Assembly: GCA_937930175.1 (NCBI GenBank)
Contig: CALGLP010000022.1
Location: 66,585 to 130,584, forward strand
Length of the DNA stretch: 64,000 nucleotides
Origin: an uncultured bacterium
Lineage (GTDB): Bacteria; Omnitrophota; Gorgyraeia; Zapsychrales; Aceulaceae
Direction of reading: 5' to 3'
Below the pieces are notes generated by a model, which was given only the letters and a program-made list of their open reading frames with translations, was not told where the DNA came from and searched no databases. The position numbers and the translations under genes were made by a program. Of the stretch, positions 9,778 to 39,575 are shown piece by piece (within the stretch, counting starts at the first letter, position 1; the number at the start of each line of letters is the position of its first letter).

Positions 9778-10290
9778 ATGAAGATTGTTGGACGGGTTGT
9801 TTTGATTGTGCTTGTTTTTTTGTTTGTGTTTGGGCTTTCACGAAGCCGCGCTCAGCTATTTACCTTTGGCGGCAGTCCTTTAGAGGGAAAGTCCGCGCCT
9901 GATTTTACATTATCAACGTTGACCAAGGGGCCTACGACCTTAAGCGCTTACCGCGGTAATCAGGCTGCGATTATTTTTTTCTGGGCCACGTGGTGTCCGC
10001 ATTGCCGCACAGCGCTGGAAGACCTTAATGCCCGCGCCCAAGAAATTCAAAGCCAAGGAATTAAAATCATTGTTGTTGATGTGGGAGAGTCTAAGGTTCA
10101 AGTACAAAACTATATTGATGAGCGTAACGTGACTTTGGATGTTTTTCTTGATGAAGAGTCGTTGGTTTCAAGCGATTATGCGGTCGTTGGCGTTCCAACC
10201 TTTGTTTTGATTGATAAAGAGGGAATGGTTAAGAGCGTTAAGCATGCCCTATCAGATGATTATCAGAAACTTCTTGATACAAGTAATTAA
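9778..10290 (+). CDS. TlpA/ResA-like periplasmic thiol-disulfide oxidoreductase (thioredoxin fold)
   Basis: Signal peptide/anchor followed by a WATWCPHC (CxxC) active site and the thioredoxin-fold motif VVGVPTFVLID. Confidence 0.85.
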   Translation: MKIVGRVVLIVLVFLFVFGLSRSRAQLFTFGGSPLEGKSAPDFTLSTLTKGPTTLSAYRGNQAAIIFFWATWCPHCRTALEDLNARAQEIQSQGIKIIVVDVGESKVQVQNYIDERNVTLDVFLDEESLVSSDYAVVGVPTFVLIDKEGMVKSVKHALSDDYQKLLDTSN

Positions 10291-11780
10291 TTCGCCATCG
10301 ATTCTTGTTGCGATCTGGTGATATTGTCAACGAGCTTTGCTTTTTGGCGAAGCCCTGCTAAAAAGTTGGTAAATGCTTGTTCGCGTAGCTTTGCGATCAA
10401 GCGATCCTTAAGAACAGCTTTTTCCTTTTCAAATTTCTCCTTGTCAGCTTCGAGGAACGCCCCTAAATACAGAAGCACAACCCCATTATTGATGTCCACA
10501 GGAGCGCTTAAGGGATTTTCTTGGGTCAAGCTAAAGGCGGCTTGATGAAATTGCGCTGAGGGTCCTACCTTGGGCAAATATTGCGCGCGATTAAACTCTG
10601 GCGTCTTTTCGATTTTTAGGTTCATCTTTTTGGCAATGGCTTCCAAGTCTTCCGTTGGATTTTTGATAAGCTCTTGATGGATTTGTTCGCGGGTTTGTTT
10701 GGCTTTTTCCTGCGCAAGTTTTTTAGACTCGGCCTGCACAACCGCGGCGCGCACTCTTTCCTGGGCTTCGTCAAAACTTAAAAGACGTTCCTCTTGGGTT
10801 TCTTTAAGGGATAAAACATAAAAACCTTTTGATGGGCTCGAGACGATTTCTAATTTACCCTTTTTAAGGCTTAAGGCTTTTTGGAAAACTTCAAGCGGCC
10901 ATCCAAGGCTCAGATTCGGGGCATCAATGCTAAAAAATCCACTTTCCTTGACGGGTAGTTTAAATTTCTCAGAAAGTTGCTTGAGATCAAAGGTGTTGGT
11001 TTCAATCGCTTTTGTTATTTCTTGTGCGGTTGACAATAAGGTGTCGTTTTTTTCTTGGGAAGAATCGCTTGGGTATTCTAGCGCAAGATAGCTAATGTTG
11101 ATCATCGGGGGGAGGCGAAACATCCCTTGGTTTTGGTCATAATAGGCGCGAAGGCTTTCTTCAGAGGCAACCACATCCTTGGCCTGTTCCGCAAAAGGAA
11201 AAAGAACATAATCGATCTGGACTTTCTCGTTTTCTGTCTGATAGGCCTTCAAGACTTGTTCATCGGTGGCGTCAACCGCGAGCGTTTCTTGGTTGTAAAT
11301 CTTTTCAAAGATGAGGGATTCGCGGATACCTTCTTCAAAATCACGCGGCGTGCAGCGAAAGACATATTGCGTGATTTGATCGTAGAGTTGTTTATCAAAG
11401 GTGCCATTTCGCTGGAAAAACGAAAACTTTTTGACCGCCGCAACGACTTCGGCATTGGAGACAGTGATTTTTCTTTTTTTCGCTTCAGCAAGTAAGATTA
11501 GCCGATCCCAGGTTTCGCTTTCAAGGTTAAGTTGGCTTTCGATTTTATTGAAGTTTTCTCCATAACGCAAGATCGCTTGGATTCTGACATGTTGTAAGGC
11601 GTCTTCAAAGTCTCTGAGTGAAACCGTGCGGCCGAAAATCTTGCCTGCAAAGGACGCTGTCTTTTGATCGCGCGTGAGTGATGTTTGAATGCCAAAAAAG
11701 ACAAAGGACACTGTGATCATGACAGCCAAAATCCAAAGGATTTTCTTAGCAACACCTTTTTTTCTTAAAATTCTAAGCAT
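10287..11780 (-). CDS. PpiD/SurA-like periplasmic chaperone (membrane-anchored, PPIase-associated); the only minus-strand gene
   Basis: N-terminal transmembrane helix ILWILAVMITVSFVFFGI, SurA-N-like domain, ~500 aa; AGGAGG ribosome-binding site before ATG at 11780. Its stop overlaps the convergent tlpA-like stop (TTAA at 10287-10290). Confidence 0.65.
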   Translation of the reverse strand: MLRILRKKGVAKKILWILAVMITVSFVFFGIQTSLTRDQKTASFAGKIFGRTVSLRDFEDALQHVRIQAILRYGENFNKIESQLNLESETWDRLILLAEAKKRKITVSNAEVVAAVKKFSFFQRNGTFDKQLYDQITQYVFRCTPRDFEEGIRESLIFEKIYNQETLAVDATDEQVLKAYQTENEKVQIDYVLFPFAEQAKDVVASEESLRAYYDQNQGMFRLPPMINISYLALEYPSDSSQEKNDTLLSTAQEITKAIETNTFDLKQLSEKFKLPVKESGFFSIDAPNLSLGWPLEVFQKALSLKKGKLEIVSSPSKGFYVLSLKETQEERLLSFDEAQERVRAAVVQAESKKLAQEKAKQTREQIHQELIKNPTEDLEAIAKKMNLKIEKTPEFNRAQYLPKVGPSAQFHQAAFSLTQENPLSAPVDINNGVVLLYLGAFLEADKEKFEKEKAVLKDRLIAKLREQAFTNFLAGLRQKAKLVDNITRSQQESMAN

Positions 11781-12050: not shown

Positions 12051-15000
12051 ATGTTTTATTTATTGCAAAAACGATTTAAGACCTTTTTAAAGACTACAAG
12101 CTTAATCTTAGCTTTTGTCTTTGCGCAGGGGGTCTTTTTGCCTTTTCCAGCTTATGCCCAGGCTGTTTTTCCTCAAGCAGGACAGATCATTTCTTTAAGC
12201 TCTGCATTTACACCTACGATTGTTCGTGGAATCCGCATTTATCCTGATAATCCTTTAAAATTTGACTTTATTGTTGACGGTGGGGACGCTGACTTAAAAG
12301 GGGATGAGTTAAAGAGCGAAAGCGAAAAACTTATCCGCTACTTCCTGGCAAGTCTTACTCTTCCAGAGAATGATCTCTGGGTCAACCTTTCTCCCTATGA
12401 AAAAGACCGCATCGTTCCAGCAGAGCTTGGGACTACCGAGATGGGTATTGATATGCTTGCCCAAGACTATCTCTTAAAGCAAATAACTGCCTCTTTAACC
12501 AATCCTGATAGTGATCTTGGTAAAGAATTCTGGCAAAAGATTTACAAGCAATCCTATGAGAAATTCGGGACAACGAACGTTCCTGTCGACACCTTTAACA
12601 AGGTCTGGATCATGCCCGATAAGGCTGAAGTCTACGTTCAAGAGGATAAGGCCTTTGTCGTTGAATCGCGATTAAAAGTGATGCTGGAAAGTGATTATTT
12701 AGCAAGAGAGAAAAGTAAAGAAGATAGAAGGGAGAAGATAGAAGATGGAAAAAACAACGACAAGACAACAGCGAATAAAAGTCCTGATTCCCTAGATTCT
12801 AAGACTTTTCCATCTTCCATTGTCCATTCTCCATCTTCTGATATCTCTTCTAGTATTGTGCGTGAGGTCTTCATCCCTGTCCTTGAGAAAGAGGTGAATG
12901 AAGGCAAGAACTTTGCCCAGCTAAGGCAGATCTACAATAGCATTATCTTAAGCTACTGGTATAAGACCAATCTCAAGAACTCCATTCTTAATAAGGTGTA
13001 CGCGGATAAAAGAAAGGTTAAAGGACTAGAAGTCGTGAATAGTGAAAAGTATCTAGTATCTAGCCAAAAAAGCAATGAAGAGTCGTTAGAAAATGGCGAA
13101 GAAAAGCACCAGATACCAGATACTAGATACCCTTCACAGGTTCAAAGTAATTCTTTGCCAGATACTATTCACTCTTCACCAGATACTGTTCAGATTATCT
13201 ACCAACAATACCTCCAAACTTTTAAAAAAGGCGTCTGCAACATGATGAAGGTGGAGTATGACCCTTACACCAAAAAGAACATCCCCCGAAAATACTTTGC
13301 GGGAGGGGTGGTGTGGGATGTTGCACCAATTCTAGGCTATTTCTCAACGATCATCGGGCCTATGCCGCAGTGGGTTTTAACGTCCACGCTCGAAGATCCT
13401 TTGATGATGATCGAGTTTAATTCTGTGCCTGTAACAGAAGAGGTCTTCAACTCCGAAAAAGTTCGTGCGCAGGGGGTTGCGCAGGGAAGTTCTGAGCCCA
13501 TAACGATCAGCAGTAGCCTGAGGCCGTTATCCGATGAAACAAAAGCGCAGCTCGGCAAGCTTTTAAATGAATATGTGAAATGGGGTGGGACCACGGTGGT
13601 TGGAAAAACAGGTTTTTTTGCTTTTCTCAAAGCAAAATGGGGATGCGACGATCAAGTGCTTTCAGAGATCTTGGGCGTTAAGAGGAAATTTGCGAAATCT
13701 CTTGTCGAGGCGCGACAGGCGGGAGGGATTAGCGTTAGAAATATTTATGCATTTGTAGAAAGGTTTGGGTTTACGGGTAATGACGAGACAATTTTTTTTG
13801 GTCTTGCAAAACCTAAAAAAGATGTAAAGTTTTTGTCAGAGAATATGTTTAATTTGTTTGTTGAGATTAAGGTCGCAATGCCAAAGGTATTGTATCTTGG
13901 CATACCTGATAATTCCCCTAAAGAAGATCAAGGTTTTTTTGTGCCCAATCCAAATGGGTCGGGGGACACCTATGTTCCGCTGATAAGAAGAGTTTCCTTC
14001 GCCTCGTCAAATATTACAGGAGAGAATGATCTTCCTTTGAGCCCGCTCACGGGAAAACCGGATCTGCGTTCCCGCAAAGGTGATCCGGACACCTTAGAGC
14101 AGAAGATGGACGCATTAAAAAAAGCTATTCAAGGCGGTTATCCCTACGGGATTCGTTATGGCGTAAATAGACTTTTAGCAGCGGCGATTAATTCTCAAGC
14201 GAATCCCAGTCAAAGAATTCAGGCCTTAGAGTTTCTTGCTCAGCTACAGCTTCCTCAGAAGTTTATTGATCAGTTTTTATTCGAGAAATCCAAAGGCGAC
14301 AAAGAGCGCTGGTTGGCACAGGTGGCTGGGGATCGAGAAGCTAACCCTCGCCTGCGGGAGCTATGCATCCAGGTTCTGGCAGTTTTATCGCAACAGCTTG
14401 GTAGTCGCTGGAACTATGACCTGCTGGAGGAAGTTATCACTCGGGATAAGAAAAGGGATATCTCGGGGCTTCCGCTTGCTTCTACAGGCAAGCCCAACTT
14501 GCATCATCGCACAGGCCCTCACAGTACTCTTCGCCAGCTGATTGCTGATTTGCCGAGGCCTGGAAAAACTCCTGGAGGGATCCGCCATACCGTGAATGGT
14601 CTCTTGAGCATCGCGATCAATACAGAAAATTCTTCAGATAGGATCCTGGCTCTTCAAACGATTGCAGAATTAAAAATTGATCAAAAATATATCGATCAAT
14701 TTTTATTTGAGAAATCTAAAGGCGACAAAGAGCGCTGGCTGGTTGAGGTGGCAGAAGATCTGCAGGCTGAGCCGCATCTGAGGGCATTAAGTATCCAAAC
14801 CTTGTGGGTGCTGGCTCGGCAGTTCGGCAGTCCTTGGGCGTATAATTTGCTTGAAGATCTTGCTCATCCTAAAGCCGCGGGAGCGAACGCTCCCCAGGAA
14901 GTACAAGAGGCCTTGGATAGCTACGCAGGATATCTTAATTTTATTACAGATGCGGATTTGGTAATGACAGACCGTATTTTACCATCGGCACTCATTTATC

Positions 15001-18000
15001 ATATTTTTGGTGAGAACATTATTGAAATGTTTATGGCCTGGGGCAAGGTTGTAGATCCGCAACTTCCAGCTGCTGCTCGCCAAGAGAATGTGCAGCGCTT
15101 GATTGCTATTGCAAGGGGTGAGGGGGTGGAATATCAAGGCACGGATTTTCAAGCCGAAGCGCATAGCATATTGCTGCAGATGTCCACGACCACAAAGAGA
15201 GCTCTGCATCCAAAATTCCGGTACATGGCCCAGAAGTATATCGACAAAGCTCCGCCTAAGCCTTTGATGACCATATTGCGAAATCCTGATCCCAAGAAAC
15301 AAGAGACCTCTTCAAGCCTTGTTCAAAAACTTCAGGCAGAGCTTGAGGCATTCAAGGAAGTTGATTTTTCTGCACAAGCCCAAGAGTTAAAGAGCCACTA
15401 TAAAAGTTTTCTTCCCCGCAAGCGGCCAGAAGACCGTAAAAAACTTCAACAGGAGATCGAGAGTTTTTTGGGAGCGCTCAGGGATCTTCTTTCACAACAT
15501 CCGTTGCTCGCACGTTCAATGCGCTTGGCCCGCTATGATGTTTTAGGACGCGTTCAGAGGGTTTCCGATTGGCTGTCGTCGCATGCGCCATCCCCACCGG
15601 CATCCACCAGGGATCGTCTTAGCCTGGAAGCGGATCTGAACAAAGCGATCCGGATTTTGTCGATTCTGCAAAATAGTGCCTATGGACTCATGGATCTTAA
15701 GGTCTTGCCTCAACCCGGTCAAGAGAAGATTTTTTATTTAGAGGTATTTAGCGATGCGGTGATCCTTGCGAGCCTTGAAAACCAGAAAGACTGGAAGCCT
15801 GAGTATAAAGCGTGCTTCAGGGAGTTTCAAAAGATCATTGGTTCGGAAGCTGTTGTTGAAGCCTTTGCCTTGGGGCGCCGGGATTATGCTGTTTGTCTTT
15901 TGCAGATCCTGATTTCGTGGCAGGATTATCGACGAATCATGGAGGATCTGATTGAGCGGATCCCTGCAGAGAGCCTTGGTCGCGCCTTTGTCCGGGACAC
16001 ACAATCATTCTTGGGGGCTGTGCGGAAAATGGATCTGGCCATCAAAGAAAGCGGTGAGGCGATTTATGTGGACCGCTATCCGTTGACGATCGACCGCTTT
16101 CTTCAAAGATTTCCCGACCTTGCTTCAGTCTTTGGTGAGAGTTGTGGACAGAATTTCGGTTCTTTTGTTAACAGCATCGAAACACTTGCCGAGCGCGAAT
16201 CCCGCGATAAGCATCTTGAGGCGCATCTGGACGCCTTGGAGAGATTGTTTGTGCGAGTCTTTCCCCAGGTAAAAGACCGGCAACGCGCTGTCCGCGAACA
16301 TTTTCTGAATCTCGTTAATTTATCGCGTCAGGCTGTCCGCAGTGATCAGGCGTTCTGGGGTCTTGTGGAGTTGATCGGCGCTGATGCGCTCAGAGAAGAT
16401 TTCTTCTCTGACGACAATCGAGTGCTCGAACACCTGAATATTATCCTGCCAGCATGGTCCGGACTTGTTTCGGCGTTATCTGATCCTTCGCGTGATCTTG
16501 CCAAGCCGACAATAGCGTTCTTAGCCGCCTGGGTTGAGAACGCAAAAATGCCCGTTTCCAACGGGAAAAAGGTCTCCTCAAGCTCTCTGGAGAGTATTTT
16601 ACGAGATGAATTATCAGCATTCAGGGCTACGGATCTGGCTGTGCGTGCCAAGAGACTTAAAGCGCGCTATCAAAAAATGGCCAAAAAGATAGAGGGCAAA
16701 GAATATCCGGATGCAAAAGAAGCTGTACTTATTGAGAAATACGGAAAGAAACTTTTAAAGGATATGAGGACCTTTTTTAAGGACAAAACTCTTTTGTGTT
16801 CGACTGTTGAGCAGGCTGCGATCTTGCCAGAGTTGGCAGTCTTTAATCCCATGACTGATTTTCTTGCTGGTTTTTTACAGGTTAAGATCAAGATGAAATC
16901 GCCTCAGGATGTAATCGCCGTGCAGCGTGGAGCCATCGTGCAAGTGGAAAAGGTCTTAAGCGCGCTTCAAAATGGCCATTATGCCCAAGAAAATATCAAA
17001 GAGACGAAAGCTAAGTCTACCGGGGAAATTATTCAATATGTTGATCTTTTTGGGTTGGGGATGCGCGGGAAGAAGATGAACAGTTTTGTTGTGGAGAAAT
17101 CAGGCTTTAAGAAGTTCTCTGAGGGTTTTCAAATAAAGCCTGAGTTGATTTCTTTGCTCCAGGGCCTTCGCCATCTGCACGAAGAGAATCCAGGCTTGTA
17201 TTTGGAATTAGAAAAAGCCGCGCTTGATCCGGCGTATCAAATCCCTGAAACGATGCAAAATTCCGCGCATGCTCAGACCGTCGGTCTTTTTGATAAAGAT
17301 GGCGCAATGAAGCCCTTAGCTCGGATAACTCTTGTGGAAACTTTTAATGGGCCCGAGATGAGAAAACAATGGGCCGAAAATATCCGCATCCGGGAAACCG
17401 GCCAGGTTACGATTAGTTTTGATCGAAATGGCAAGGTCTTATCCGTAAGCCAGGGGGATATGGGTCAAAAAAGGCCAGCAAGCATCGGCAACGAGTATGT
17501 TCTTCTTAATGTTGATGTCACGAGTCGCGGTAACGAGCTTTATCTCGTAGAGAGTTCTTTTAAGTCTTTGCCGTATGTGGTAAGGAGAAGCTTGATGTGG
17601 CTTGCGTCAGGAGGCTTGTGGATCCGCGAGGATATTCCTTGTGACCTTGACCCAGAGACTGCCGCCTTAAGCCCCGAAAGGATCAGGGAAACGTTTTTGC
17701 ACCAGCCTAAGCCGAAAAGCTTGTCTGCGTATTTTGTTTCTCAGAAGGAAGCGATCCGCCGGGCCTATGCCGCCTACCTTGAGGACAAGAAACCCAAAAC
17801 AGCCAAAGATTTTGCCACCTTCGAGGAGCTGTACGCGCATGTAAACGCTGTATTGTTCTATGAAGGCATGTATTTTGAGCGAAGAGGGTTGGAATATTTT
17901 GAGGAATATTTCCATGAGGTGTCGGCCCAGATTAAAGAATTTGAGGATCTTTTTAGCGGGAATATCGATCTGGAGAAATTGTCCGCTTTTGAACTTTTCA

Positions 18001-21000
18001 TGAAGACGCTGGGTTTGGCTGATCTTAAAAGCCGGAGTGACCGCTATTATTATCAGGCGCGAGACTATTATTCCCGGATCCTTTATGGCAAACATTTCTG
18101 GGAAATGTATGCCGATCAAAAAGAAAGCTTAAGCGAGGCCCAGAAAAGCATCGTCCGGATCTCGATCGATTTCTTTCCGGGCCGCTACGATGAGGAGTGG
18201 GATGCTTGGCAGCAAAGATTTCAGGCCGAGCTCAATAGAAGAAAAACGCAAGGTCCGAAGTTTGCCCTAGAGGTCATTGCGGGCCTAAAATCTAAGGGCA
18301 TCAATCTGCAAGAGTTTGGGATGAGCCGGTTGATCGATCAAGTGCTGGGCTTAGGGGGCGAACGTTTGGCTCCTTCCGTTTACGCGGATGAACAATCTGT
18401 GCAGGATGGGACGGATTATTATCTCACTGACCAGATTCTGGAACGGCTTGACCTTAAGGCCTCGGATGTGTTCTATGATCTTGGCTCAGGACACGGGAGG
18501 GTTATTTTCTGGACGGCGTTTTCTACTGCGATCGGCAAAGCGGTCGGCATTGAATATGTTTCTGAATGGGCCAATCGTGCTAGCGACTTGGCTCTTAAGC
18601 ATAATATCTCGGATAGGGCGGTCTTTATTAATTCCAAGGTCCAGAATGTTGACTTCAGCGATGGCACGGTTTTCTTTCTTTATAATCCTTTCCAGGCTTC
18701 TACCCTTGCGCGCGTCACGGAAAAACTGCAGGCGATCGCCCGCCAGAAGAAAATCCGCGTGATTAGTGTAGGGGGTTGCAATGAACATTTCCTTTTACAA
18801 GGGACTTGGCTTAAAGTTGCGGAGATGATCAAAGGTAGCAGGGATGAGAGCGCTATCATTTTTGAGTCGACCATCGACTCCCCATCGGCGGCCGCGGGCC
18901 CTGCGGGCGATCAGCCGTCGGTGGGGAATCTGCCTCCTGATGTAAAGAATGCTATGTATTTCATCTTAGACTCAGATGGCGTTATTCTAAGGATCCCCGA
19001 GATTGATAAAGAACATGTTGCTTTTGTGTACGCTATGATGAAAAAGGAGATCACCGACCCTCAAGGGTTTGTTCCCAGCGAAGTGGATATGCAAGAAGGT
19101 CGTCAATTCAAAGAAAAGTATCCTGGCCACACAACCAAGGTAATCTTAAGGGAACTTTTAACTTCGTCCTTTGCTGACCGATTTAAAGGATTGGATACTG
19201 AAGAGCTTGTTTCGAAATTTGATCAAATTTATCGAGACCGAAAAAATGCTGAGGTTGATGAGATACTAAATCTTCCCCTGGAAGAAGCTGAAAAAAGATT
19301 GCTTATGCCCGGGGTTAAGAAATTTTTACAAGACAAGGTTAATCAAGGGGCTGTCTTGCGGGTCCTTTCTGGCGGGAGAGAAAGCGAAAAGCGGCGTATT
19401 TTTGAAAAACTTGGATTGATGGGTTTTTTTCAGGATGTCCAATTCGCAGGTACTAGAGAGAAGAAAATCGAAATCTTTGAAGACATGATCGCCAATATTG
19501 ACCATAAGGAGAATATTGTTATCGTGGATGATTCTCTTGAGAATATTGATGAGTATAGAAATGTCATCAGCCAGGGTCAAAAGCGTTCCGGGAAGTCTTT
19601 TCTTATCGGCTTGGCGAACAAAGAGCAAGAGGATCGCATGAAGCCGCACGCGGATTATGTGATTGAGGACTTAAGCGGCTTGGTAGCATCGTCGGCTAGT
19701 AAACTTGGTGATGAGGGGAAGGCGGGGGAGGGAAGCGCCGCCTCGACAAAAAATCTCAAGCGCATTGAAAATGTCCATGATTGGTTGGTCACTCCTGAGC
19801 GTGTTAAGGAAGTGACTCGTCGGGCTGTGGCCTTGGGGTGGAAAGAAGTTAGCAAGAAAACAGCGGATGATATACTTGATAAATTGAGAACTTACGGAAA
19901 TCGATATCCTTTAGATAAATATTCAACAGAGCGCGATCCTGGCAAAACCGTCATGATCAATTGGTGCGTCGATCAAGCTGTGAGGAAGCAGAGGGATCTT
20001 TTTTTTACGCAGGAAGGGTTGATATTCTTGGTCGCGGATCTTATGGATAAAAGTAAGGATTTGGCCAGGAGATTTCTGATTGACCTGGGAAATCTTGATG
20101 ATGCAAAGTTTAATAAAATACTTGAAAACGAGCTAAGGCCTAAGGCCATGAGCCATAGTAATTTCGCACCTGAGCGCATTGACGCCGTTGTTCATTGGCT
20201 GGCGCGTCCGGATAAAGAGTTTTTTCCAGTGAAGAAGAAAATGATTGATTCGCTCCTCAAGGCAGGGATGGAAGAGCTAGCCCAGATTTCTTATAAAAGC
20301 TTATATCTGCCTGACCGCCAATTAGGAGAGATTCAGCTTAATGATGACCAATACTGGATATTGTCCCAAATGAATTTTAAGGTTCTTCTTTTAGATTTGA
20401 TTTATCAAGATCCGGTTGCAGCCCAAGCACTGCTTGATCCCTTACTAGCGTCGATGGATAGCGAAAAAGAGATACTTAGCGCAAAATCGTATATCAATTT
20501 TGGAATTAAACAGATCGCAGGGATCCAGGGCGTGGTTGAGGAATATGTGCGGGATTATTTTGTTACTGTCGATGGATCAGCAAAAGAGACGTCTTCTTAT
20601 TCTGTCAGGATTGCGGGTATCATGCGTTCCTATATTCTGGAAGCATGGGAGAAATTGGCGGAGGATCATCTTGATGTTAGTACCACTGCTTATACGAAGA
20701 AAAAGAATCTTGTTGTTAATCTCTCGGGGGAAGATCTGGAGAGGTGTATTACGGCTATCAATACTTTCTTGAGAATGCATTTTGAAGATAAGTTGTTTAG
20801 TTTTTCCCTTGACGAAGGAGACCTTAGTATTTCGGTTTTAGATCAGCTAGAGGAGGATGCTGGCAGCAATCCTCAAGCTCAAGAGCTCCGTGATCTTGGA
20901 ATTCCTCCCGATGTTGGTGCGCAGGCTAAGGAAAAGGAAGGCATCTTCAGCCCTGTGGGCGAACAGCCGTCGGCGGGGGGAAAGGCTGTGCATTTGGAGG

Positions 21001-23612
21001 ACCGCGCTGTCCTTCAGGGCGATCTGCCGATTTCAGATGCCGAACGGGCGTCTTTGACTTTCATCAGGACAGTGCTAGAACGGGAAAGATGGCCAAAACG
21101 TAATGATATTTTTCTTCGGGATGCTGGAACTATCTTCGAGGGCCTGCTTCAAGGTGCCGCTGCTGTTTTATTTAAAAGGCTGTTGGTTGAGTTGCTTGGT
21201 AATGCATGGGACTATGGCGCTATAGATTCGCCAGACAGGAGTGTGCCCTGGGTTGTGGATCTTTATCAAAATGCTCAGAGTCAATATTTTTTAAAAGTAA
21301 TGATTTTCCAAGACCATATTTCGAAAGATGACTTGATGAGCCTGTTGTCGCATCAAGGTCTTTCTGCAAGGGATATTCTACAAGAGCAAAGCGTGATCGG
21401 GAAGGGCCTGGCTAAAAAAGGGCACGGGGCTTTTGAATCTTTCGCGCTTTTATCCAAAAAGGGCATTCCTTTGACATTAGAGTATTCCAGGGAGGGCAAG
21501 GGGTTAAAGACGGTTTTATGGGCCGGGATTTCTTCTCAAGCAGGCCAGGCGAAAGGACAACCTACCTTGGGATACGGCCAAGACTATTTGCAGACCACCA
21601 AGACGCAGGCAGGCTTGCCTAATCCAAACGAGCAGGGCGATCAGCTGCAAGCGGGGAAGGGAAGCAGTGCCAGCCCCATATTTCAGAAGACGCACAAAGC
21701 TGATCTTTATCAAAAAGCTAAAAAACTTTTAGATGAGATCTTCCCCCAGATACTCGAGGATTTTACCAAAGACCCGGGCAAGAAAGGATTTGAGGGGCCT
21801 GATGGTCTGATCGCCTTTATACGTCAAGAATTGGAAAAAAGGCTTGGGGAAAAGCTTTCAGATCCTCTCCTTGGTCAATTGCTGGGATTTGATAGCAAAA
21901 CTCTACGCGCAAAACTCAATAGCGTCGAAGGTTTGAGCCCTCTTCAAGACATCAAGATTCAAAAGCTTGTTGATCGGTATCCTTCCTTAAAAGATGAGGA
22001 AGCACGTCTGCGGGCCATTAATCAGGAAGTTTCTTTTGAGCAGGCTAAGATGGTGCTCAAGAGAATATTTAAGACAGCCCTTCGAGAATATGTTGAAGTC
22101 AAAGAAGGAACGACGTTCTGGGGTCCTGAGGGTTTCGCTCTGTTCTTGAAAAAGAAACTTGAATCAGAACTTGGTGTCAAGGAGATAACAAAGGGATTTT
22201 TTGGGAATCTACTTGGTTTTAGTGCGAATCGCTTAGAAGAACGGGGTGCCCAAAGCCTTTTGCCTAAAAACCAAGCCCAGCTTATGGATGAGCACGATTT
22301 GGATGATGTCGAACGAGAATATTTATCTGAGATTTGTGGCGGGAAAGAAATAGAAGTAGTCTTTCAACCTGAACCTGATTTTCCGAGAGTGGCCAGGCGG
22401 ACCTTGAAAGCATATCGGAAACAAGGGGGCACAAGGCTTTCAGGTAGCGACGGGTATTTTCGTTATCTTTTTGATAGAGTCGGCATGAAGGGCGTTAAAA
22501 AGATAGGTTATGATTTTAACGGGGCAGTAAGTAAACAAGCCGTTTGGTCATGGCTATCCGGCCACACCCCTTCAAAGGTGTTGCTGGAAAAAGTCGTTTA
22601 TGAGGCCTTCGCGACACTTACCCCGCTATTCAAAAAGTCAATGTTAAAAAGCTTGCTCGAGCTTCGCACAATGGAGATCGAAGCCGCCAAAAGCGCTATG
22701 CCACATTCCGAGCACACGGACGAAATTGAGGGTTCTTCTGATCCGGCGGGGGAGAGGGCGGATTTGGCAAACAAAGCAAGCAAAGACGAACGCTTTATTT
22801 TTACTGACATTATCGCAGAGGGCTGGATAGTTAATACCCAGTATTACAACAAGATCGTTGAATATGCTAATCAACGACTTAAGTATTTATTAAGCCAGAC
22901 TGAAAATGCTCAGAAACTTGAAGGGATTTATTTGGAAATCAGGAAAAAGGCGAAGAGTAAAAATTTGGTACTTGATATTAAGATTGATAAAAATCAAAAA
23001 GAAGATATTGGGGTGGTTGTGTTGACGCCGCAAATGGAGAATTTAGATCTTCAGGCGAGTAATATTGATATCGATGACACAGATTTTAAACACAGGCGAT
23101 TAGGAAGAAGTATTTATATTGCAGTGAACGATGCGCTTGGTTTTTATGGGCAAGGGGTTATTACAAGCAAGGGATTTTTTCTAGAAAGCAAGGGCATCTC
23201 ACCAGGAAAGAATTTATGGGAAAGTCTTGTTCGCGATGGATATGCTGAAAAGATTCTGGGAGCTGGTTACAGAATGCTTTCTTCCAGCAAAAGTCCAGAT
23301 GGTGTTGCTCCTTCGTCTTCGTTTGGGAATAATACACCAGAAGGGAAGAAATTGGGAGGGATTGATTTTAACGCCAAGAATATGAACGTTACGGCCACAG
23401 GTTCATCGTCTGTCGATTTTACCTTGCCTGAGGGCATCACGGCAGAGGGCCTGATGAACGCTCAAGGATTTGTGCCTGTTATTATTAGTATCACCCCGGT
23501 TGCGAATATCTGGACCTTGATGGGCCTCAATCGAGAGGACGCGCAAGAACTACAGCGTGTTCAAGGCCTGGGGGAGGCCATGGAGCCGGAAAAGATAAGT
23601 TTGGCAAGGTAG
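12051..23612 (+). CDS. Giant secreted multidomain protein (3853 aa): signal peptide; low-complexity S/E/K-rich region; HEAT-like repeats with a 142-aa tandem duplication; DOT1-like SAM methyltransferase domain; HAD-like hydrolase domain; GHKL (histidine-kinase/Hsp90-type) ATPase-like domain; C-terminal repeated ~95-aa modules
   Basis: Single uninterrupted ORF. Signal peptide MFYLL...FPAYAQA. Motifs DLGSGHG...GIE...VFFLYNPF (class I methyltransferase); ILDSDGVI...IVIVDDSLENI (HAD motifs I and III/IV); LLVELLGNAWDYGA (HATPase N-box). Confidence 0.85.
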   Translation: MFYLLQKRFKTFLKTTSLILAFVFAQGVFLPFPAYAQAVFPQAGQIISLSSAFTPTIVRGIRIYPDNPLKFDFIVDGGDADLKGDELKSESEKLIRYFLASLTLPENDLWVNLSPYEKDRIVPAELGTTEMGIDMLAQDYLLKQITASLTNPDSDLGKEFWQKIYKQSYEKFGTTNVPVDTFNKVWIMPDKAEVYVQEDKAFVVESRLKVMLESDYLAREKSKEDRREKIEDGKNNDKTTANKSPDSLDSKTFPSSIVHSPSSDISSSIVREVFIPVLEKEVNEGKNFAQLRQIYNSIILSYWYKTNLKNSILNKVYADKRKVKGLEVVNSEKYLVSSQKSNEESLENGEEKHQIPDTRYPSQVQSNSLPDTIHSSPDTVQIIYQQYLQTFKKGVCNMMKVEYDPYTKKNIPRKYFAGGVVWDVAPILGYFSTIIGPMPQWVLTSTLEDPLMMIEFNSVPVTEEVFNSEKVRAQGVAQGSSEPITISSSLRPLSDETKAQLGKLLNEYVKWGGTTVVGKTGFFAFLKAKWGCDDQVLSEILGVKRKFAKSLVEARQAGGISVRNIYAFVERFGFTGNDETIFFGLAKPKKDVKFLSENMFNLFVEIKVAMPKVLYLGIPDNSPKEDQGFFVPNPNGSGDTYVPLIRRVSFASSNITGENDLPLSPLTGKPDLRSRKGDPDTLEQKMDALKKAIQGGYPYGIRYGVNRLLAAAINSQANPSQRIQALEFLAQLQLPQKFIDQFLFEKSKGDKERWLAQVAGDREANPRLRELCIQVLAVLSQQLGSRWNYDLLEEVITRDKKRDISGLPLASTGKPNLHHRTGPHSTLRQLIADLPRPGKTPGGIRHTVNGLLSIAINTENSSDRILALQTIAELKIDQKYIDQFLFEKSKGDKERWLVEVAEDLQAEPHLRALSIQTLWVLARQFGSPWAYNLLEDLAHPKAAGANAPQEVQEALDSYAGYLNFITDADLVMTDRILPSALIYHIFGENIIEMFMAWGKVVDPQLPAAARQENVQRLIAIARGEGVEYQGTDFQAEAHSILLQMSTTTKRALHPKFRYMAQKYIDKAPPKPLMTILRNPDPKKQETSSSLVQKLQAELEAFKEVDFSAQAQELKSHYKSFLPRKRPEDRKKLQQEIESFLGALRDLLSQHPLLARSMRLARYDVLGRVQRVSDWLSSHAPSPPASTRDRLSLEADLNKAIRILSILQNSAYGLMDLKVLPQPGQEKIFYLEVFSDAVILASLENQKDWKPEYKACFREFQKIIGSEAVVEAFALGRRDYAVCLLQILISWQDYRRIMEDLIERIPAESLGRAFVRDTQSFLGAVRKMDLAIKESGEAIYVDRYPLTIDRFLQRFPDLASVFGESCGQNFGSFVNSIETLAERESRDKHLEAHLDALERLFVRVFPQVKDRQRAVREHFLNLVNLSRQAVRSDQAFWGLVELIGADALREDFFSDDNRVLEHLNIILPAWSGLVSALSDPSRDLAKPTIAFLAAWVENAKMPVSNGKKVSSSSLESILRDELSAFRATDLAVRAKRLKARYQKMAKKIEGKEYPDAKEAVLIEKYGKKLLKDMRTFFKDKTLLCSTVEQAAILPELAVFNPMTDFLAGFLQVKIKMKSPQDVIAVQRGAIVQVEKVLSALQNGHYAQENIKETKAKSTGEIIQYVDLFGLGMRGKKMNSFVVEKSGFKKFSEGFQIKPELISLLQGLRHLHEENPGLYLELEKAALDPAYQIPETMQNSAHAQTVGLFDKDGAMKPLARITLVETFNGPEMRKQWAENIRIRETGQVTISFDRNGKVLSVSQGDMGQKRPASIGNEYVLLNVDVTSRGNELYLVESSFKSLPYVVRRSLMWLASGGLWIREDIPCDLDPETAALSPERIRETFLHQPKPKSLSAYFVSQKEAIRRAYAAYLEDKKPKTAKDFATFEELYAHVNAVLFYEGMYFERRGLEYFEEYFHEVSAQIKEFEDLFSGNIDLEKLSAFELFMKTLGLADLKSRSDRYYYQARDYYSRILYGKHFWEMYADQKESLSEAQKSIVRISIDFFPGRYDEEWDAWQQRFQAELNRRKTQGPKFALEVIAGLKSKGINLQEFGMSRLIDQVLGLGGERLAPSVYADEQSVQDGTDYYLTDQILERLDLKASDVFYDLGSGHGRVIFWTAFSTAIGKAVGIEYVSEWANRASDLALKHNISDRAVFINSKVQNVDFSDGTVFFLYNPFQASTLARVTEKLQAIARQKKIRVISVGGCNEHFLLQGTWLKVAEMIKGSRDESAIIFESTIDSPSAAAGPAGDQPSVGNLPPDVKNAMYFILDSDGVILRIPEIDKEHVAFVYAMMKKEITDPQGFVPSEVDMQEGRQFKEKYPGHTTKVILRELLTSSFADRFKGLDTEELVSKFDQIYRDRKNAEVDEILNLPLEEAEKRLLMPGVKKFLQDKVNQGAVLRVLSGGRESEKRRIFEKLGLMGFFQDVQFAGTREKKIEIFEDMIANIDHKENIVIVDDSLENIDEYRNVISQGQKRSGKSFLIGLANKEQEDRMKPHADYVIEDLSGLVASSASKLGDEGKAGEGSAASTKNLKRIENVHDWLVTPERVKEVTRRAVALGWKEVSKKTADDILDKLRTYGNRYPLDKYSTERDPGKTVMINWCVDQAVRKQRDLFFTQEGLIFLVADLMDKSKDLARRFLIDLGNLDDAKFNKILENELRPKAMSHSNFAPERIDAVVHWLARPDKEFFPVKKKMIDSLLKAGMEELAQISYKSLYLPDRQLGEIQLNDDQYWILSQMNFKVLLLDLIYQDPVAAQALLDPLLASMDSEKEILSAKSYINFGIKQIAGIQGVVEEYVRDYFVTVDGSAKETSSYSVRIAGIMRSYILEAWEKLAEDHLDVSTTAYTKKKNLVVNLSGEDLERCITAINTFLRMHFEDKLFSFSLDEGDLSISVLDQLEEDAGSNPQAQELRDLGIPPDVGAQAKEKEGIFSPVGEQPSAGGKAVHLEDRAVLQGDLPISDAERASLTFIRTVLERERWPKRNDIFLRDAGTIFEGLLQGAAAVLFKRLLVELLGNAWDYGAIDSPDRSVPWVVDLYQNAQSQYFLKVMIFQDHISKDDLMSLLSHQGLSARDILQEQSVIGKGLAKKGHGAFESFALLSKKGIPLTLEYSREGKGLKTVLWAGISSQAGQAKGQPTLGYGQDYLQTTKTQAGLPNPNEQGDQLQAGKGSSASPIFQKTHKADLYQKAKKLLDEIFPQILEDFTKDPGKKGFEGPDGLIAFIRQELEKRLGEKLSDPLLGQLLGFDSKTLRAKLNSVEGLSPLQDIKIQKLVDRYPSLKDEEARLRAINQEVSFEQAKMVLKRIFKTALREYVEVKEGTTFWGPEGFALFLKKKLESELGVKEITKGFFGNLLGFSANRLEERGAQSLLPKNQAQLMDEHDLDDVEREYLSEICGGKEIEVVFQPEPDFPRVARRTLKAYRKQGGTRLSGSDGYFRYLFDRVGMKGVKKIGYDFNGAVSKQAVWSWLSGHTPSKVLLEKVVYEAFATLTPLFKKSMLKSLLELRTMEIEAAKSAMPHSEHTDEIEGSSDPAGERADLANKASKDERFIFTDIIAEGWIVNTQYYNKIVEYANQRLKYLLSQTENAQKLEGIYLEIRKKAKSKNLVLDIKIDKNQKEDIGVVVLTPQMENLDLQASNIDIDDTDFKHRRLGRSIYIAVNDALGFYGQGVITSKGFFLESKGISPGKNLWESLVRDGYAEKILGAGYRMLSSSKSPDGVAPSSSFGNNTPEGKKLGGIDFNAKNMNVTATGSSSVDFTLPEGITAEGLMNAQGFVPVIISITPVANIWTLMGLNREDAQELQRVQGLGEAMEPEKISLAR
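14040..14891. repeat. In-frame tandem duplication (2 x ~426 nt) inside the giant gene, encoding two HEAT-like 142-aa units (..IDQFLFEKSKGDKERWL..)
   Basis: TTTTTATT(C/T)GAGAAATC(C/T)AAAGGCGACAAAGAGCGCTGG occurs at 14274 and 14700 (period 426 nt); the protein units are ~60% identical. Confidence 0.8.
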
Positions 23613-27245: not shown

Positions 27246-27263
27246 ATGAAGGAGGAAGCAGCT

Positions 27264-27713
27264 ATGGAAATTACAGAGATCAGGGTTTTTTTAAAAGATG
27301 GCCAGGATAAAAAACTTAAAGCTTATGCGACGGTAACATTTGACAATTGTTTTGTTGTGAGAAATATCAAGGTCATTCATTCGGCCAATGGTTTTTTTAT
27401 GGCGATGCCGTCTCGGAAAACAAAATTTTCTTGTCCAAAATGCAATTTTAAGAATGAAGCTGGTAGTAAATTTTGCAACTATTGTGGGGCAAAGTTGCCT
27501 TTGCAGGAGCCATCGGTTAAGCCTAAAGATGCCAAGGCTGATCATCGGGATATTGCGCATCCGGTGACTAAAGAATTTCGTGATTATTTGCAGAAAAAGG
27601 TTCTAGAAGCCTATGAACAGCAAGCCGCCAAGGGAGAATCATCTCCTGTGGAAGTCTCTGGGGTTGAGGAGATTCATGATGCTGGCGATATTGCGGATGA
27701 TGATGTTTTGTAA
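27264..27713 (+). CDS. spoVG: SpoVG-family protein with a zinc-ribbon insertion and C-terminal acidic tail
   Basis: MEITEIRVFL...YATVTFDNCFVVRNIKVI..NGFFMAMPSRKT...DIAHPVT is the canonical SpoVG core; GGAGG ribosome-binding site 8 nt upstream of ATG 27264. The ORF track begins at ATG 27246 (MKEEAA...). Confidence 0.85.
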   Translation: MEITEIRVFLKDGQDKKLKAYATVTFDNCFVVRNIKVIHSANGFFMAMPSRKTKFSCPKCNFKNEAGSKFCNYCGAKLPLQEPSVKPKDAKADHRDIAHPVTKEFRDYLQKKVLEAYEQQAAKGESSPVEVSGVEEIHDAGDIADDDVL

Positions 27714-37204: not shown

Positions 37205-38239
37205 ATGCATAAAAAGCTTTGGGAAATCGCAGCACATCTTAAGGGTCAAGTTCAAGGCGATGATAACATCGTGATTACTGGTATTTCCGGCATCAAGGAG
37301 GCAGGGCCCGGGGACATCACGTTTGTTGCCAATGCTAAATATTTCCCTTTGGTAGAATCCACGAAAGCTTCAGCGATTATTGTGCCTCGTGATATTGGGG
37401 CTAGCGCAAGAAATTTTATTCTTGTTGATAACCCTTCGCTTGCATTTGCTCAAATTGCCGCATTTGTTTTAGGTGAGCAAGAGCACCAGCTCAAAGGTAT
37501 TCATCCAACGGCTGTGATTGCCCAAGATGTAAGCATAGGAACAAATGTTCGTATCGGTGCCCATACGGTTATTGAAGGCAAGGCTGTGATCGGCGATGAT
37601 ACGGTTATTTACAGTGGTTGTTTTGTTGGGCATGAGACGTCTATTGGTTCGAAATGTTTGGTTTATCCTAATGTTACAATTCGTGAGCGTTTATCCATTG
37701 GTCATCGTGTGATTATTCATTCGGGGACTGTGATTGGTTCAGATGGTTTTGGTTTTGCTCAGGTTGAAGGCGTTCATCACAAAATTCCTCAGGTGGGTAC
37801 CGTGGTGATTGAAGATGATGTCGAGATTGGAGCCAATGTCACGATTGATCGGGCACGGTTTGATAAAACAGTGATCGGTCAAGGAACCAAGATCGACAAT
37901 CTTGTGCAGATTGCGCATAATGTTGTTATTGGGCGACATTGTATTATTGTTGCTCAGACGGGCATTTCAGGAAGTGTTGAGATCAAAGAAGGTGCTATCT
38001 TAGCCGGTCAGTCTGGTATTGCCGGGCATCTGACTATTGGCGAAGGCGCGATTGTTGGGGCTCAGGCGGGTGTGACAAAATCTGTTGCGGCTAAGACCTT
38101 TGTTTCTGGGTACCCGGCTAAGCCGCATGAGAAGGCAAAGAAAGTCAATGCCGCCTTGCAGCGATTACCTGAACAGATTAAAACGATTAACGCGCTGAAA
38201 GCCAAAGTGGCTATGCTTGAAGAAAGACTTAAGGTTTAA
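37205..38239 (+). CDS. lpxD: UDP-3-O-(3-hydroxyacyl)glucosamine N-acyltransferase
   Basis: LpxD N-terminal domain followed by hexapeptide left-handed beta-helix repeats; synteny skp-lpxD-fabZ-lpxA. Confidence 0.9.
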
Positions 38240-38243
38240 CAAT

Positions 38244-39575
38244 ATGAATGCTAAACAAAAAACGATTCAGCAGGAAATTTCAGTCCAGGGCAAAGGGCTT
38301 CATTTAGGAAAAGAGGCTAAGGTTGTTTTTAAGCCAGCCCAAGAAAATAGCGGGATTTGTTTTATGCGCGTTGATCTTCCTGGGAAACCAACGGTTAAAG
38401 CGGAATACACGAATATTTTACATCAAGAGGCCCTGTCGCGTTGTACTTCGATTAAGGACGGTGAGGCGGTTGTTCATACCGTTGAGCACGTGATGGCTGT
38501 TTTGTGTGGGCTTCAGATTGATAATCTTCTTATTGAAATTAATGCCGAAGAGCTGCCTGGGCTTGATGGCAGCGGAAGGGATTATTATCAAGCCCTTAAA
38601 AAAGGTGTTGTTGCGCAAAGAGCGGAAAGGAAGTTTATTGATATCAAGGAGCCTATTTGTCTTGAAGATGGCGATTCGTCTCTTTTTGCAACGCCCGCGA
38701 CAGAGCTCAAGGTTTCCTATTTGCTTGATTATCAGCATCCTGTTTTGAATGCTCAATTCTTTAGCCGAGAAATAAATGAACAGGTTTTTGAAAAGGAAAT
38801 TTCTTCATCGAGGACATTTTGTCTTGAAAGCGAAGCGCAAGCGCTTCAAGGTCAGGGCTTGGGCAAAGGTGCTAACCATACCAACACCCTTGTTGTGACC
38901 GATTCTGGCGTCAAAGAAAATACACTTCGTTTTCCAGATGAATTTGTTCGTCATAAAGTTCTTGATCTTGTTGGCGATCTTTATCTTTTAGGTCGGCCTG
39001 TCCGTGGTCATATTTTTGGCATGAAAAGCGGACATCGGCTTAATCGACGATTGCTTCAAAGAATTGTTGAGCAAAATGAAAAATATGAAAAGATTTTCAC
39101 CCCGAAAGCCTTCGAGCATGTGGGCAAGACTGTTCTTGATATTAATGCGATCCGAGACATTTTGCCGCATCGCTATCCTTTTTTGTTTGTTGATCGGGTG
39201 ATTGAGCTTACGCCTGGCAAGCGTGCGGTTGCCGTTAAGAATGTGACGGCGAATGAGCCTTTTTTTCAAGGTCATTTTCCAGACAAGCCTGTGATGCCAG
39301 GGGTTTTGATGATTGAGGCCATGGCGCAGGTAGGGGGCATCGCGGTTTTAACAGATCCTGAGAACAAGGATAAGCTTGCGTTATTTATGGCCATTGATAA
39401 TGTAAAATTCCGTAAAGTCGTTGAGCCTGGCGATCAATTGGTTTTTGAGGTAGATGTTCTAAGATGCAAATCACGTTTTGCTCAGGTGAAGGGTCTTGCG
39501 AAAGTTGATGATAAGGTTGTGGTTGAGGCGGACTTAATGTTTTCTTTTACTGATTTATCTTATTTGCGAAGCTAG
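38244..39575 (+). CDS. lpxC/fabZ: Bifunctional UDP-3-O-acyl-GlcNAc deacetylase / 3-hydroxyacyl-ACP dehydratase (LpxC-FabZ fusion)
   Basis: N-terminal ~280 aa of LpxC (TIQQEISVQGKGLHLGK..., HTVEHV, HKVLDLVGDL); C-terminal ~150 aa hot-dog FabZ (LPHRYPFLFVDRV, GHFP..PVMPGVL). Confidence 0.9.
   Translation: MNAKQKTIQQEISVQGKGLHLGKEAKVVFKPAQENSGICFMRVDLPGKPTVKAEYTNILHQEALSRCTSIKDGEAVVHTVEHVMAVLCGLQIDNLLIEINAEELPGLDGSGRDYYQALKKGVVAQRAERKFIDIKEPICLEDGDSSLFATPATELKVSYLLDYQHPVLNAQFFSREINEQVFEKEISSSRTFCLESEAQALQGQGLGKGANHTNTLVVTDSGVKENTLRFPDEFVRHKVLDLVGDLYLLGRPVRGHIFGMKSGHRLNRRLLQRIVEQNEKYEKIFTPKAFEHVGKTVLDINAIRDILPHRYPFLFVDRVIELTPGKRAVAVKNVTANEPFFQGHFPDKPVMPGVLMIEAMAQVGGIAVLTDPENKDKLALFMAIDNVKFRKVVEPGDQLVFEVDVLRCKSRFAQVKGLAKVDDKVVVEADLMFSFTDLSYLRS

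Follow-up and report, generated by a model that had tools for sequence, protein, structure and literature searches.

A DOT1/aKMT-type methyltransferase domain embedded in a giant, probably exported protein of an Omnitrophota bacterium

Main finding

The 64,000-nucleotide stretch of DNA analysed here (the window), from contig CALGLP010000022.1 of an uncultured bacterium of the phylum Omnitrophota, encodes a giant protein that carries an intact methyltransferase domain of the DOT1/aKMT family. An earlier note, made from the sequence alone, had proposed a DOT1-like class I S-adenosylmethionine (SAM) methyltransferase at this place, and that call is supported. We consider it somewhat probable (roughly 0.55) that residues ~1945-2271 of the exported giant constitute a DOT1/aKMT-type SAM methyltransferase, probably specific for protein lysine, which would act in the cytoplasm of a host or prey cell. 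The features on which this reading centres are:

12051..23612, + strand: open reading frame of the giant protein (3,853 residues, from the list of open reading frames and the translation), hosting the methyltransferase domain
17883..18374, + strand: pre-domain co-conserved with the catalytic core, residues ~1945-2108, delimited by the extents of BLAST matches
18375..18863, + strand: catalytic core, DOT1/aKMT-like class I SAM methyltransferase, residues 2109-2271

Family identity of the methyltransferase domain

The peptide quoted in the earlier note, DVFYDLGSGHGRVIFWTAFSTAIGKAVGIEYVSEWANRASDLALKHNISDRAVFINSKVQNVDFSDGTVFFLYNPF, was recovered exactly and in frame within the reading frame 12051-23612 (+). 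The span given there, 18380-18800, contains the greater part of the core but ends short of strands beta6 and beta7. In the comparison with Pfam, DOT1 (PF08123) was the only family to exceed its gathering score, with 33.3 bits (E 4.7e-8, cutoff 23) for the whole protein and 38.4 bits (E 1.2e-9) for excised residues 2051-2300, another excised piece scoring 36.7. The next family, Methyltransf_25, reached 13.7-18.2 bits against a cutoff of 27, and all generic and small-molecule methyltransferase models stayed below threshold, so that the search assigned the region to no small-molecule family. The best match in NCBIfam was the archaeal protein-lysine N-methyltransferase NF041081.

The sequences of solved structures gave the same picture. 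A search of the PDB with the single sequence returned 5BXY (3e-8) and the Sulfolobus aKMT (1e-7), followed by DOT1 enzymes. With a family profile (A2) built from 13 sequences the values became 2e-19 for 5BXY, 4e-16 for aKMT, 1e-12 for LpDot1, 1e-10 for human DOT1L and 1e-8 for the Trypanosoma DOT1A (TbDOT1A), and 21 distinct aKMT/DOT1 sequences preceded the first other methyltransferase, RebM (9e-8). Similarity of this degree is not to be expected by chance. Lysine methyltransferases of the aKMT/DOT1 family were thus ranked at the top by sequence, by profile and by two methods of structure comparison, and the domain resembles eukaryotic DOT1 less than it does the compact aKMT/5BXY type of prokaryotes.

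The earlier note had left room for an arginine methyltransferase as well. No model of the protein arginine methyltransferase type was matched in Pfam at E <= 1, and chains of CARM1 appeared in the PDB search at E 0.07-0.12 only; judged by these matches, methylation of arginine by the domain is unlikely. A specificity for protein lysine, in turn, is what homology to aKMT, DOT1 and LpDot1 would suggest. More specifically, aKMT4 combines a Dot1-type core with broad specificity and methylates many proteins on lysine without recognition domains (PMC4639711), LpDot1 methylates K518 of SFPQ in host cells (bioRxiv 10.64898/2026.01.11.698932), and DOT1L and Rv2067c methylate H3K79, as cited in the same preprint.

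The substrate might nevertheless belong to another class, the DOT1/aKMT-like fold having been recruited for an acceptor such as RNA, a lipid, a cell-wall component or a small molecule. Class I methyltransferases readily change their substrate class, the DOT1 profile is matched here without its C-terminal half, and PADLOC gave a weak match to mad2 (E 5e-4). Moreover, 5BXY, the nearest solved structure, was deposited as an 'RNA methyltransferase', and West-Roberts et al. call the equivalent fold in giant proteins homologous to the SAM-dependent RNA methyltransferase 5BXY (10.1101/2023.11.21.568195). However, in the sources this label is only a name given by the depositors, with no assay cited, whereas the characterised relatives aKMT4, DOT1, LpDot1 and Rv2067c methylate protein lysine, and Pfam recognised no RNA-binding domain beside the methyltransferase. 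We therefore regard a non-protein acceptor as quite unlikely. The mad2 match, at 17 bits, was also all that PADLOC offered for a reading of the locus as a defence system, which was set aside.

Fold, motifs and cofactor site

The core of 163 residues (2109-2271) was predicted by AlphaFold2 with high confidence (predicted local distance difference test 90.6, predicted template-modelling score 0.88). The predicted core has the canonical seven-strand class I topology, its sheet closing with a beta6-beta7 hairpin, and a Rossmann-type SAM-binding core, the feature whose absence, according to the earlier note, would have spoken against a methyltransferase. In Foldseek the top ranks were taken by aKMT 5fa8 (E 3.8e-10, TM-score 0.76-0.79), 5BXY, 5fad, 5jwj and LpDot1 9ne1, with top TM-scores of 0.74-0.79. 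The sequence motifs within the core are:

18465..18497, + strand: motif I, DVFYDLGSGHG, the SAM-binding glycine loop, residues 2139-2149; the D and the three G are found in 142-144 of 144 relatives
18546..18554, + strand: G-I-E with the acidic residue that ends beta2, residues 2166-2168 (E2168); E in 139 of 144 relatives
18651..18692, + strand: DFSDGTVFFLYNPF (DFSDG...NPF), residues 2201-2214, comprising the D-F on the adenine side, strand beta4 and, behind it, N-P-F as the putative active-site/gate loop

The motif I, the G-I-E and the motif IV-like N-P-F that the earlier note had picked out were all located, and all are strongly conserved among the 144 relatives; motif I, the beta2 acid and the post-beta4 N-P-F are in fact the most conserved positions of the family. 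In class I methyltransferases the acidic residue ending beta2 contacts the ribose hydroxyls, and the domain, with DLGSGHG (residues 2143-2149) and E2168, has both this acid and the class I form of motif I. Within the DFSDGTVFFLYNPF segment the conservation amounts to 119 and 117 relatives for the two D, 141 for F, 105 for N, 133 for P and 138 for the last F. All of the listed cofactor and active-site-loop residues, kept in 105 to 144 of the 144 relatives, are retained in the copy of the window. The post-beta4 Y-N-P-F lies in the region of INSSTL in LpDot1 (loop-8/J, 'D2') and of VNNFAF in DOT1L, the register of the HMMER alignment against the Asn of LpDot1 being uncertain by one residue. The segment V-Q-D-G-T-D-Y aligns with the lid N-terminal to motif I (D1 loop or loop EF; Y-G-E-T in DOT1L, Y-V-P-T in aKMT); its Thr is kept (T in 89 relatives), and its Tyr is replaced by Gln. 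Confidence in the model is low for the first 10 residues of the core. From these intact and conserved motifs the domain is predicted to be competent in cofactor binding and in catalysis.

A different view of the same domain would be that the giant is displayed on the surface or belongs to a coat, and that its methyltransferase fold binds ligands (for instance some that contain adenosine) or plays a structural part without being catalytic outside the cell. Export is predicted while SAM is not expected outside the cytoplasm, and the Tyr of the D1 loop is Gln in the copy of the window. Yet all cofactor-contacting motifs are intact and are strongly conserved in the embedded copies, pseudo-enzymes usually lose the glycines of motif I or the beta2 acid, and the neighbouring HAD-like domain also retains readable catalytic motifs. 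A purely structural role thus appears very unlikely, and a catalytically active lysine methyltransferase is preferred.

Start codon and export of the giant protein

Whether the protein leaves the cytoplasm depends on the choice between two start codons, to which the following features belong:

12051..12158, + strand: predicted Sec signal peptide, residues 1-36, with basic n-region KRFKTFLK, hydrophobic core and cleavage site PAYA↓Q
12138..12140, + strand: alternative TTG start of the public gene calls, 29 codons after the ATG and preceded at 5 nt by the Shine-Dalgarno-like motif AGGGGG; its use removes the signal peptide

The same giant protein is present in the ENA and NCBI assemblies, where it is called with 3,824 residues from the internal TTG. 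Near-identical copies exist as well: the locus L004 differs by 1 nt in 16,335, and P0250 and P0407 are identical except for the start codon and one residue. The hydropathy profile of the giant contains one N-terminal peak (residues 12-36), a weak C-terminal peak and no internal transmembrane segment.

The comparison with proteins that share the N-terminal module (see below) is informative. A leader with a basic n-region and a hydrophobic core is present in 84 of the 87 family members with a complete N-terminus, and at the junction position -1 is A in 82 of 82, position +1 is Q in 81 of 82 and a small residue occupies position -3 in 80 of 82. This junction follows the (-3, -1) rule of signal peptidase I and reads PAYA↓Q here, which supports the ATG at 12051 as the start. 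Hence, the conservation of the leader within the family favours the upstream ATG over the TTG as the probable start, and the prediction that the giant is exported is well supported by the family-wide signal-peptidase I site, as the earlier note had presumed, though the public calls start at the TTG that removes the leader. Actual passage across the inner membrane would follow from such a signal.

Alternatively, the protein might start at the TTG (nt 12138) and be a leaderless, cytoplasmic multi-enzyme scaffold that methylates the proteins of its own cell, like aKMT in Sulfolobus. The TTG is used by all public gene calls and has AGGGGG 5 nt before it, whereas no Shine-Dalgarno-like motif precedes the ATG at 12051. 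Moreover, the cytoplasm is where SAM occurs, as do the phosphorylated substrates that a HAD-type enzyme would be expected to use; the homologues of the domain are mostly small and leaderless; and in a 2026 preprint 'Module 1' of long Omnitrophota proteins, a methyltransferase/HATPase/GNAT/HAD unit, is taken to be compatible with the cytoplasmic face. However, no stop codon interrupts the 29 codons before the TTG, which spell out a textbook n-h-c signal peptide, and the AxA↓Q junction is kept in 82 of 87 family members, which would be hard to explain if this part were untranslated. In addition, the positive-inside rule places the bulk of the protein outside, and the gene of a PpiD-like chaperone is adjacent. 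A cytoplasmic scaffold is in our view unlikely, and we continue with the exported protein. The public gene calls then cut off the signal peptide of the giant, and surveys of topology that use TTG-start calls could misclassify it as leaderless.

Relatives and distribution of the module

A word-indexed search with the single domain yielded 13 short homologues only, and with the profile at least 2,109, mostly stand-alone PF08123 proteins of ~300 residues (from Chloroflexota, Bacteroidota, Fibrobacteria and others). An exhaustive search found 2,464 homologues among 1.84 billion representatives. Its closest matches include many long proteins, namely P0251 (2,433 residues), P0253 (2,735), P0256 (2,882), P0261 (5,070), P0264 (3,918), P0361 (7,085) and several of 800-1,260 residues. 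The long relatives with a name stem from metagenome-assembled genomes (MAGs) of Omnitrophota, Auribacterota and Elusimicrobiota. All five long relatives that were scanned with Pfam pass the DOT1 threshold, and their partner domains include HATPase_c, HD, TPR and Methyltransf_28. P0251 has the same architecture of N-module and C-module as the giant and carries two copies of the methyltransferase domain. As a separate observation, P0252 joins the methyltransferase domain to Methyltransf_28 (PF02636).

Similarity to the long relatives begins 150-200 residues upstream of the core, which implies that the conserved unit consists of the pre-domain (~residues 1945-2108) together with the core. In terms of BLAST, matches start at residues 1886-1959 of the giant for the long relatives and at ~residue 2021 for the stand-alone family of 300 residues.

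A scan of the GTDB species representatives, a set that does not include the window's own genome, gave closest domain relatives with 38-47% identity (loci L011-L090). They are enriched in Patescibacteria (candidate phyla radiation), Omnitrophota, Auribacterota, Planctomycetes and Elusimicrobia, and also comprise a Bacteriovoracaceae MAG and a DPANN archaeon of the Diapherotrites; the closest relatives, the proteins P0251-P0392 included, are enriched in lineages that are host-dependent or predatory. The long reading frames among them start with hydrophobic leaders, and such leaders are carried by several loci (L012, L014, L015, L020, L023 and L026). A recent insertion of the methyltransferase domain into the giant was considered and rejected, GC content and GC content at third codon positions being flat across the gene.

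Conserved end modules and variable cargo

The remainder of the giant places it in a family of its own. The features concerned are:

12159..13400, + strand: conserved N-terminal module, ~residues 37-450, of an Omnitrophota-wide family
18963..19547, + strand: HAD-superfamily hydrolase-like domain, residues 2305-2499, located after the Pro/Ala/Gly-rich linker behind the methyltransferase core
23316..23549, + strand: conserved C-terminal module, residues 3756-3833, GGIDF...MNV...PVIISITPVANI...LMGL

The first 480 residues of the giant match at least 1,807 proteins, almost all of which carry the name Omnitrophota, with 41-71% identity, and in none of these does a Pfam model cover the N-terminal region. 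The Pfam domains in the C-terminal parts of the N-module proteins vary and comprise HATPase_c, several class I methyltransferases, HAD, ankyrin, proline dehydrogenase and NTP transferase. The last ~75 residues of the giant are common to N-module family members of 560-830 residues. A hidden Markov model of this C-module, built from 13 members, matched 28 of 120 N-module proteins, the giant (residues 3756-3833, E 8.6e-29) and P0251, always 1-27 residues from the C-terminus; no Pfam or NCBIfam model matches the module. The giant itself has the complete set by which the family is defined: a Sec leader with AxA↓Q, an N-module of ~400 residues and a module of ~75 residues at the C-terminus.

The HAD-like domain remained just below threshold in Pfam (Hydrolase 24.9-25.7 bits for a cutoff of 26.4, HAD_2 21.2-23.4 for a cutoff of 23.8), and the translation lets its motifs I (DSDGV) and IV (VDDS) be read. 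Related long proteins that have the methyltransferase do not conserve the HAD-like domain along with it. Some 85% of the giant has no recognisable domain. Two further candidates were noticed by eye, an N-box of a GHKL ATPase (LVELLGNAWDYG, ~residue 3090, near 21300 in the window) and a GNAT-like loop (RRLGRS, ~residue 3680, near 23090); both were rejected, as neither Pfam with overlapping pieces nor phmmer against the PDB supported them. The giant also contains an internal tandem duplication of ~135 residues (14031-14435 and 14469-14861, residues 661-795 and 807-937; 55% identity, E 2e-39), which carries the repeated motif IDQFLFEKSKGDKERWL.

A bolder generalization would be that the proteins with N- and C-module form a phylum-specific, Sec-dependent platform by which enzymes of cytoplasmic type are delivered into prokaryotic prey or hosts, the present module being a lysine-methylating effector between prokaryotes. 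We consider this generalization rather unlikely. If it were true, archaeal chromatin proteins or translation factors of the prey would be examples of candidate targets, and the module would be the first protein-lysine methyltransferase effector acting between prokaryotes.

Gene neighbourhood

One neighbouring gene may bear on the export of the giant:

10287..11780, - strand: PpiD-like periplasmic chaperone, divergent from the giant gene, with Pfam SurA_N_3 and Rotamase_2 and an N-terminal hydrophobic anchor

A Rotamase_2 peptidyl-prolyl isomerase has been reported as conserved near giant genes of Omnitrophota (10.1101/2023.11.21.568195). The window further contains the envelope genes for BamA, LpxC and LpxD, from which it follows that the organism is diderm; the rest of the neighbourhood consists of housekeeping genes.

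At 38217-39575 (+), adjoining LpxD and BamA, a single reading frame encodes both LpxC (residues 14-284) and a domain like the FabA/FabZ dehydratases (residues 316-438). At 27246-27713 (+) lies a homologue of SpoVG with an insertion of ~40 residues that bears a zinc ribbon; the Pfam SpoVG match extends over residues 7-125 for a profile of 82 positions and Zn_Ribbon_1 over residues 63-84, and the arrangement is the same in the public gene calls of the organism.

Proposed mechanism

Taken together, a possible course of events can be formulated. Residues ~1945-2271 would form a seven-beta-strand SAM-dependent methyltransferase, whose most probable activity is that of a protein-lysine N-methyltransferase similar to the compact aKMT/5BXY enzymes of broad specificity, and would represent, with the HAD-like hydrolase, at least two enzyme modules strung between the conserved end modules. 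The cleavable Sec signal peptide would direct the giant across the inner membrane, where the neighbouring PpiD-like chaperone may assist. Since SAM is cytoplasmic and is not expected elsewhere, an exported methyltransferase could be active only inside a compartment that contains SAM, i.e. the partner cell. Delivered into the cytoplasm of a host or prey cell to which the bacterium is attached, the module would then methylate target proteins on lysine. Many Omnitrophota have been inferred to be predators or parasites (PMC10066038).

Action inside another cell is the weakest step of this course, the giant having no recognisable delivery device, and several observations weigh against the reading as a whole. 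Translocation, pore-forming or autoprocessing domains were not found in the giant by Pfam, NCBIfam or PADLOC; there is no known fold for the N-terminal module, which makes the delivery route pure inference; and the window contains no genes for secretion systems in general, nor the type II secretion, pilus and PilZ genes that have been reported near Omnitrophota giants. The public calls begin at a TTG, in front of which lies a good Shine-Dalgarno motif, and thus describe a leaderless cytoplasmic protein, and in Chloroflexota, Bacteroidota and Patescibacteria the methyltransferase family consists mostly of short proteins that have no leader and presumably stay in the cytoplasm. As for the enzyme, the Pfam DOT1 match spans positions 27-107 only of the 205 in the profile, and the score for NF041081 is 38.2-42.7 bits against an equivalog cutoff of 200, so that the domain is to be taken as a homologue of aKMT and not as an orthologue. 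The label 'RNA methyltransferase' that the depositors gave to 5BXY, the nearest solved structure, belongs here too, as does the Gln of the window copy at the position of the D1-loop Tyr (Y in 65 relatives, Q in 7).

Prior knowledge and significance

Parts of this picture were available before. West-Roberts et al. (2023) described giant Omnitrophota proteins with a predicted fold homologous to 5BXY and listed methyltransferase and HAD domains (10.1101/2023.11.21.568195), and the 2026 preprint reported a methyltransferase/HATPase/GNAT/HAD module in long Omnitrophota proteins; DOT1 is mentioned in neither. A clade of DOT1 homologues confined to prokaryotes had also been noted (PMC10117894), and PF08123 had already been assigned to the giant in the precomputed Pfam annotation that is publicly available.

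New is, first, that four independent methods place the module in the protein-lysine aKMT/DOT1 family. Second, the module recurs as cargo, together with its pre-domain, in long proteins. Third, a family with leader, N-module and C-module has been defined, which comprises at least 1,807 unannotated Omnitrophota proteins with swappable enzyme cargo. Considering that the long and giant proteins of the Omnitrophota are mostly unannotated, a small, confidently folded and excisable module offers a concrete entry point for experiments. If the module were active on proteins of a partner cell, the use of lysine methylation would extend from pathogenesis directed at eukaryotes (LpDot1, Rv2067c) to interactions between prokaryotic predators and their prey.

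Comparison with known systems

The MARTX-type toxins, in which a variable series of enzyme modules of cytoplasmic type is enclosed by conserved regions at the N- and C-terminus, provide an analogy to the overall architecture, and to nothing beyond it. The family of the giant likewise has conserved ends and an enzyme cargo that differs between members, but RTX repeats, a cysteine protease domain and a type I secretion signal were not found in the giant (Pfam, NCBIfam), which has a Sec leader instead. A second comparison is with the Archaeovorins, with genes of more than 90 kb, many transmembrane helices, glycosyl transferases and hydrolases, peptidases, NUDIX and SecA-like domains (10.1101/2023.11.21.568195). 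They share with the giant the phylum, the vocabulary of methyltransferase and HAD domains and a nearby gene for a Rotamase_2 peptidyl-prolyl isomerase. In contrast, the giant is ten times smaller (gene of 11.6 kb), with no internal transmembrane segment and only DOT1 and HAD as recognised domains, and genes for type II secretion or PilZ proteins do not lie next to it.

For the domain itself the eukaryotic DOT1/DOT1L enzymes (KMT4, acting on H3K79) are the eponymous relatives. The domain passes the Pfam DOT1 threshold and, with the profile, aligns to human DOT1L at E 1e-10 in a stretch that takes in the D1 loop, motif I and beta2, but its match is limited to the N-terminal half of the catalytic profile. 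No counterpart was found of the nucleosome- and ubiquitin-binding elements of DOT1L (loop 273-286, helix 319-331, F131/W305), the alignment with DOT1L stopping at profile position 76. The core ends after beta7 at residue 2271 and runs directly into the Pro/Ala/Gly-rich linker; it is too compact to leave room for the loop and helix that bind nucleosome and ubiquitin in DOT1L, and the partner cells may lack a nucleosome substrate.

LpDot1 of Legionella pneumophila (9NE1) is, like the domain of the giant, a bacterial member of the DOT1 family without nucleosome-binding elements. It provides a functional precedent for the effector reading, as it is secreted and methylates a non-histone protein, SFPQ at K518, inside the cell of another organism. 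However, LpDot1 is a stand-alone protein of 25.7 kDa that groups with eukaryotic DOT1 and presumably came from protists, whereas the Omnitrophota domain sits with prokaryotic aKMT/5BXY-like sequences, within a giant that has a Sec leader and whose likely partners are prokaryotes instead of macrophages or amoebae.

The nearest structural equivalents are aKMT/aKMT4 of Sulfolobus islandicus (5FA8, 5FAD, 5JWJ) and 5BXY of Salinibacter ruber, which have the same compact core of ~160 residues without extensions for substrate recognition. The layout is the same in DxGxGxG, GxE and VD(I/F)S(E/D)(A/G)TV before beta4, and a segment that keeps the Thr but has Gln for the Tyr aligns with the Y/x-x-T lid; the identity in structural alignments is only 22-25%. 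The domain of the giant differs from aKMT and 5BXY in its invariant NPF after beta4, and from aKMT in the conserved pre-domain of ~90-160 residues, which aKMT lacks. Moreover, it is embedded at ~residue 2100 of an exported bacterial protein of 3,853 residues and is not a free cytoplasmic archaeal enzyme. The stand-alone prokaryotic DOT1-like family of ~300 residues is homologous over ~residues 2021-2273 of the giant with 31-43% identity, and all of its members are PF08123 proteins with identical conserved motifs. Those proteins are single-domain and mostly leaderless and belong to free-living bacteria, whereas in the giant the module is the cargo of an exported multi-domain protein. In short, the kind of enzyme is known, and the architecture in which it occurs here is a new variant.

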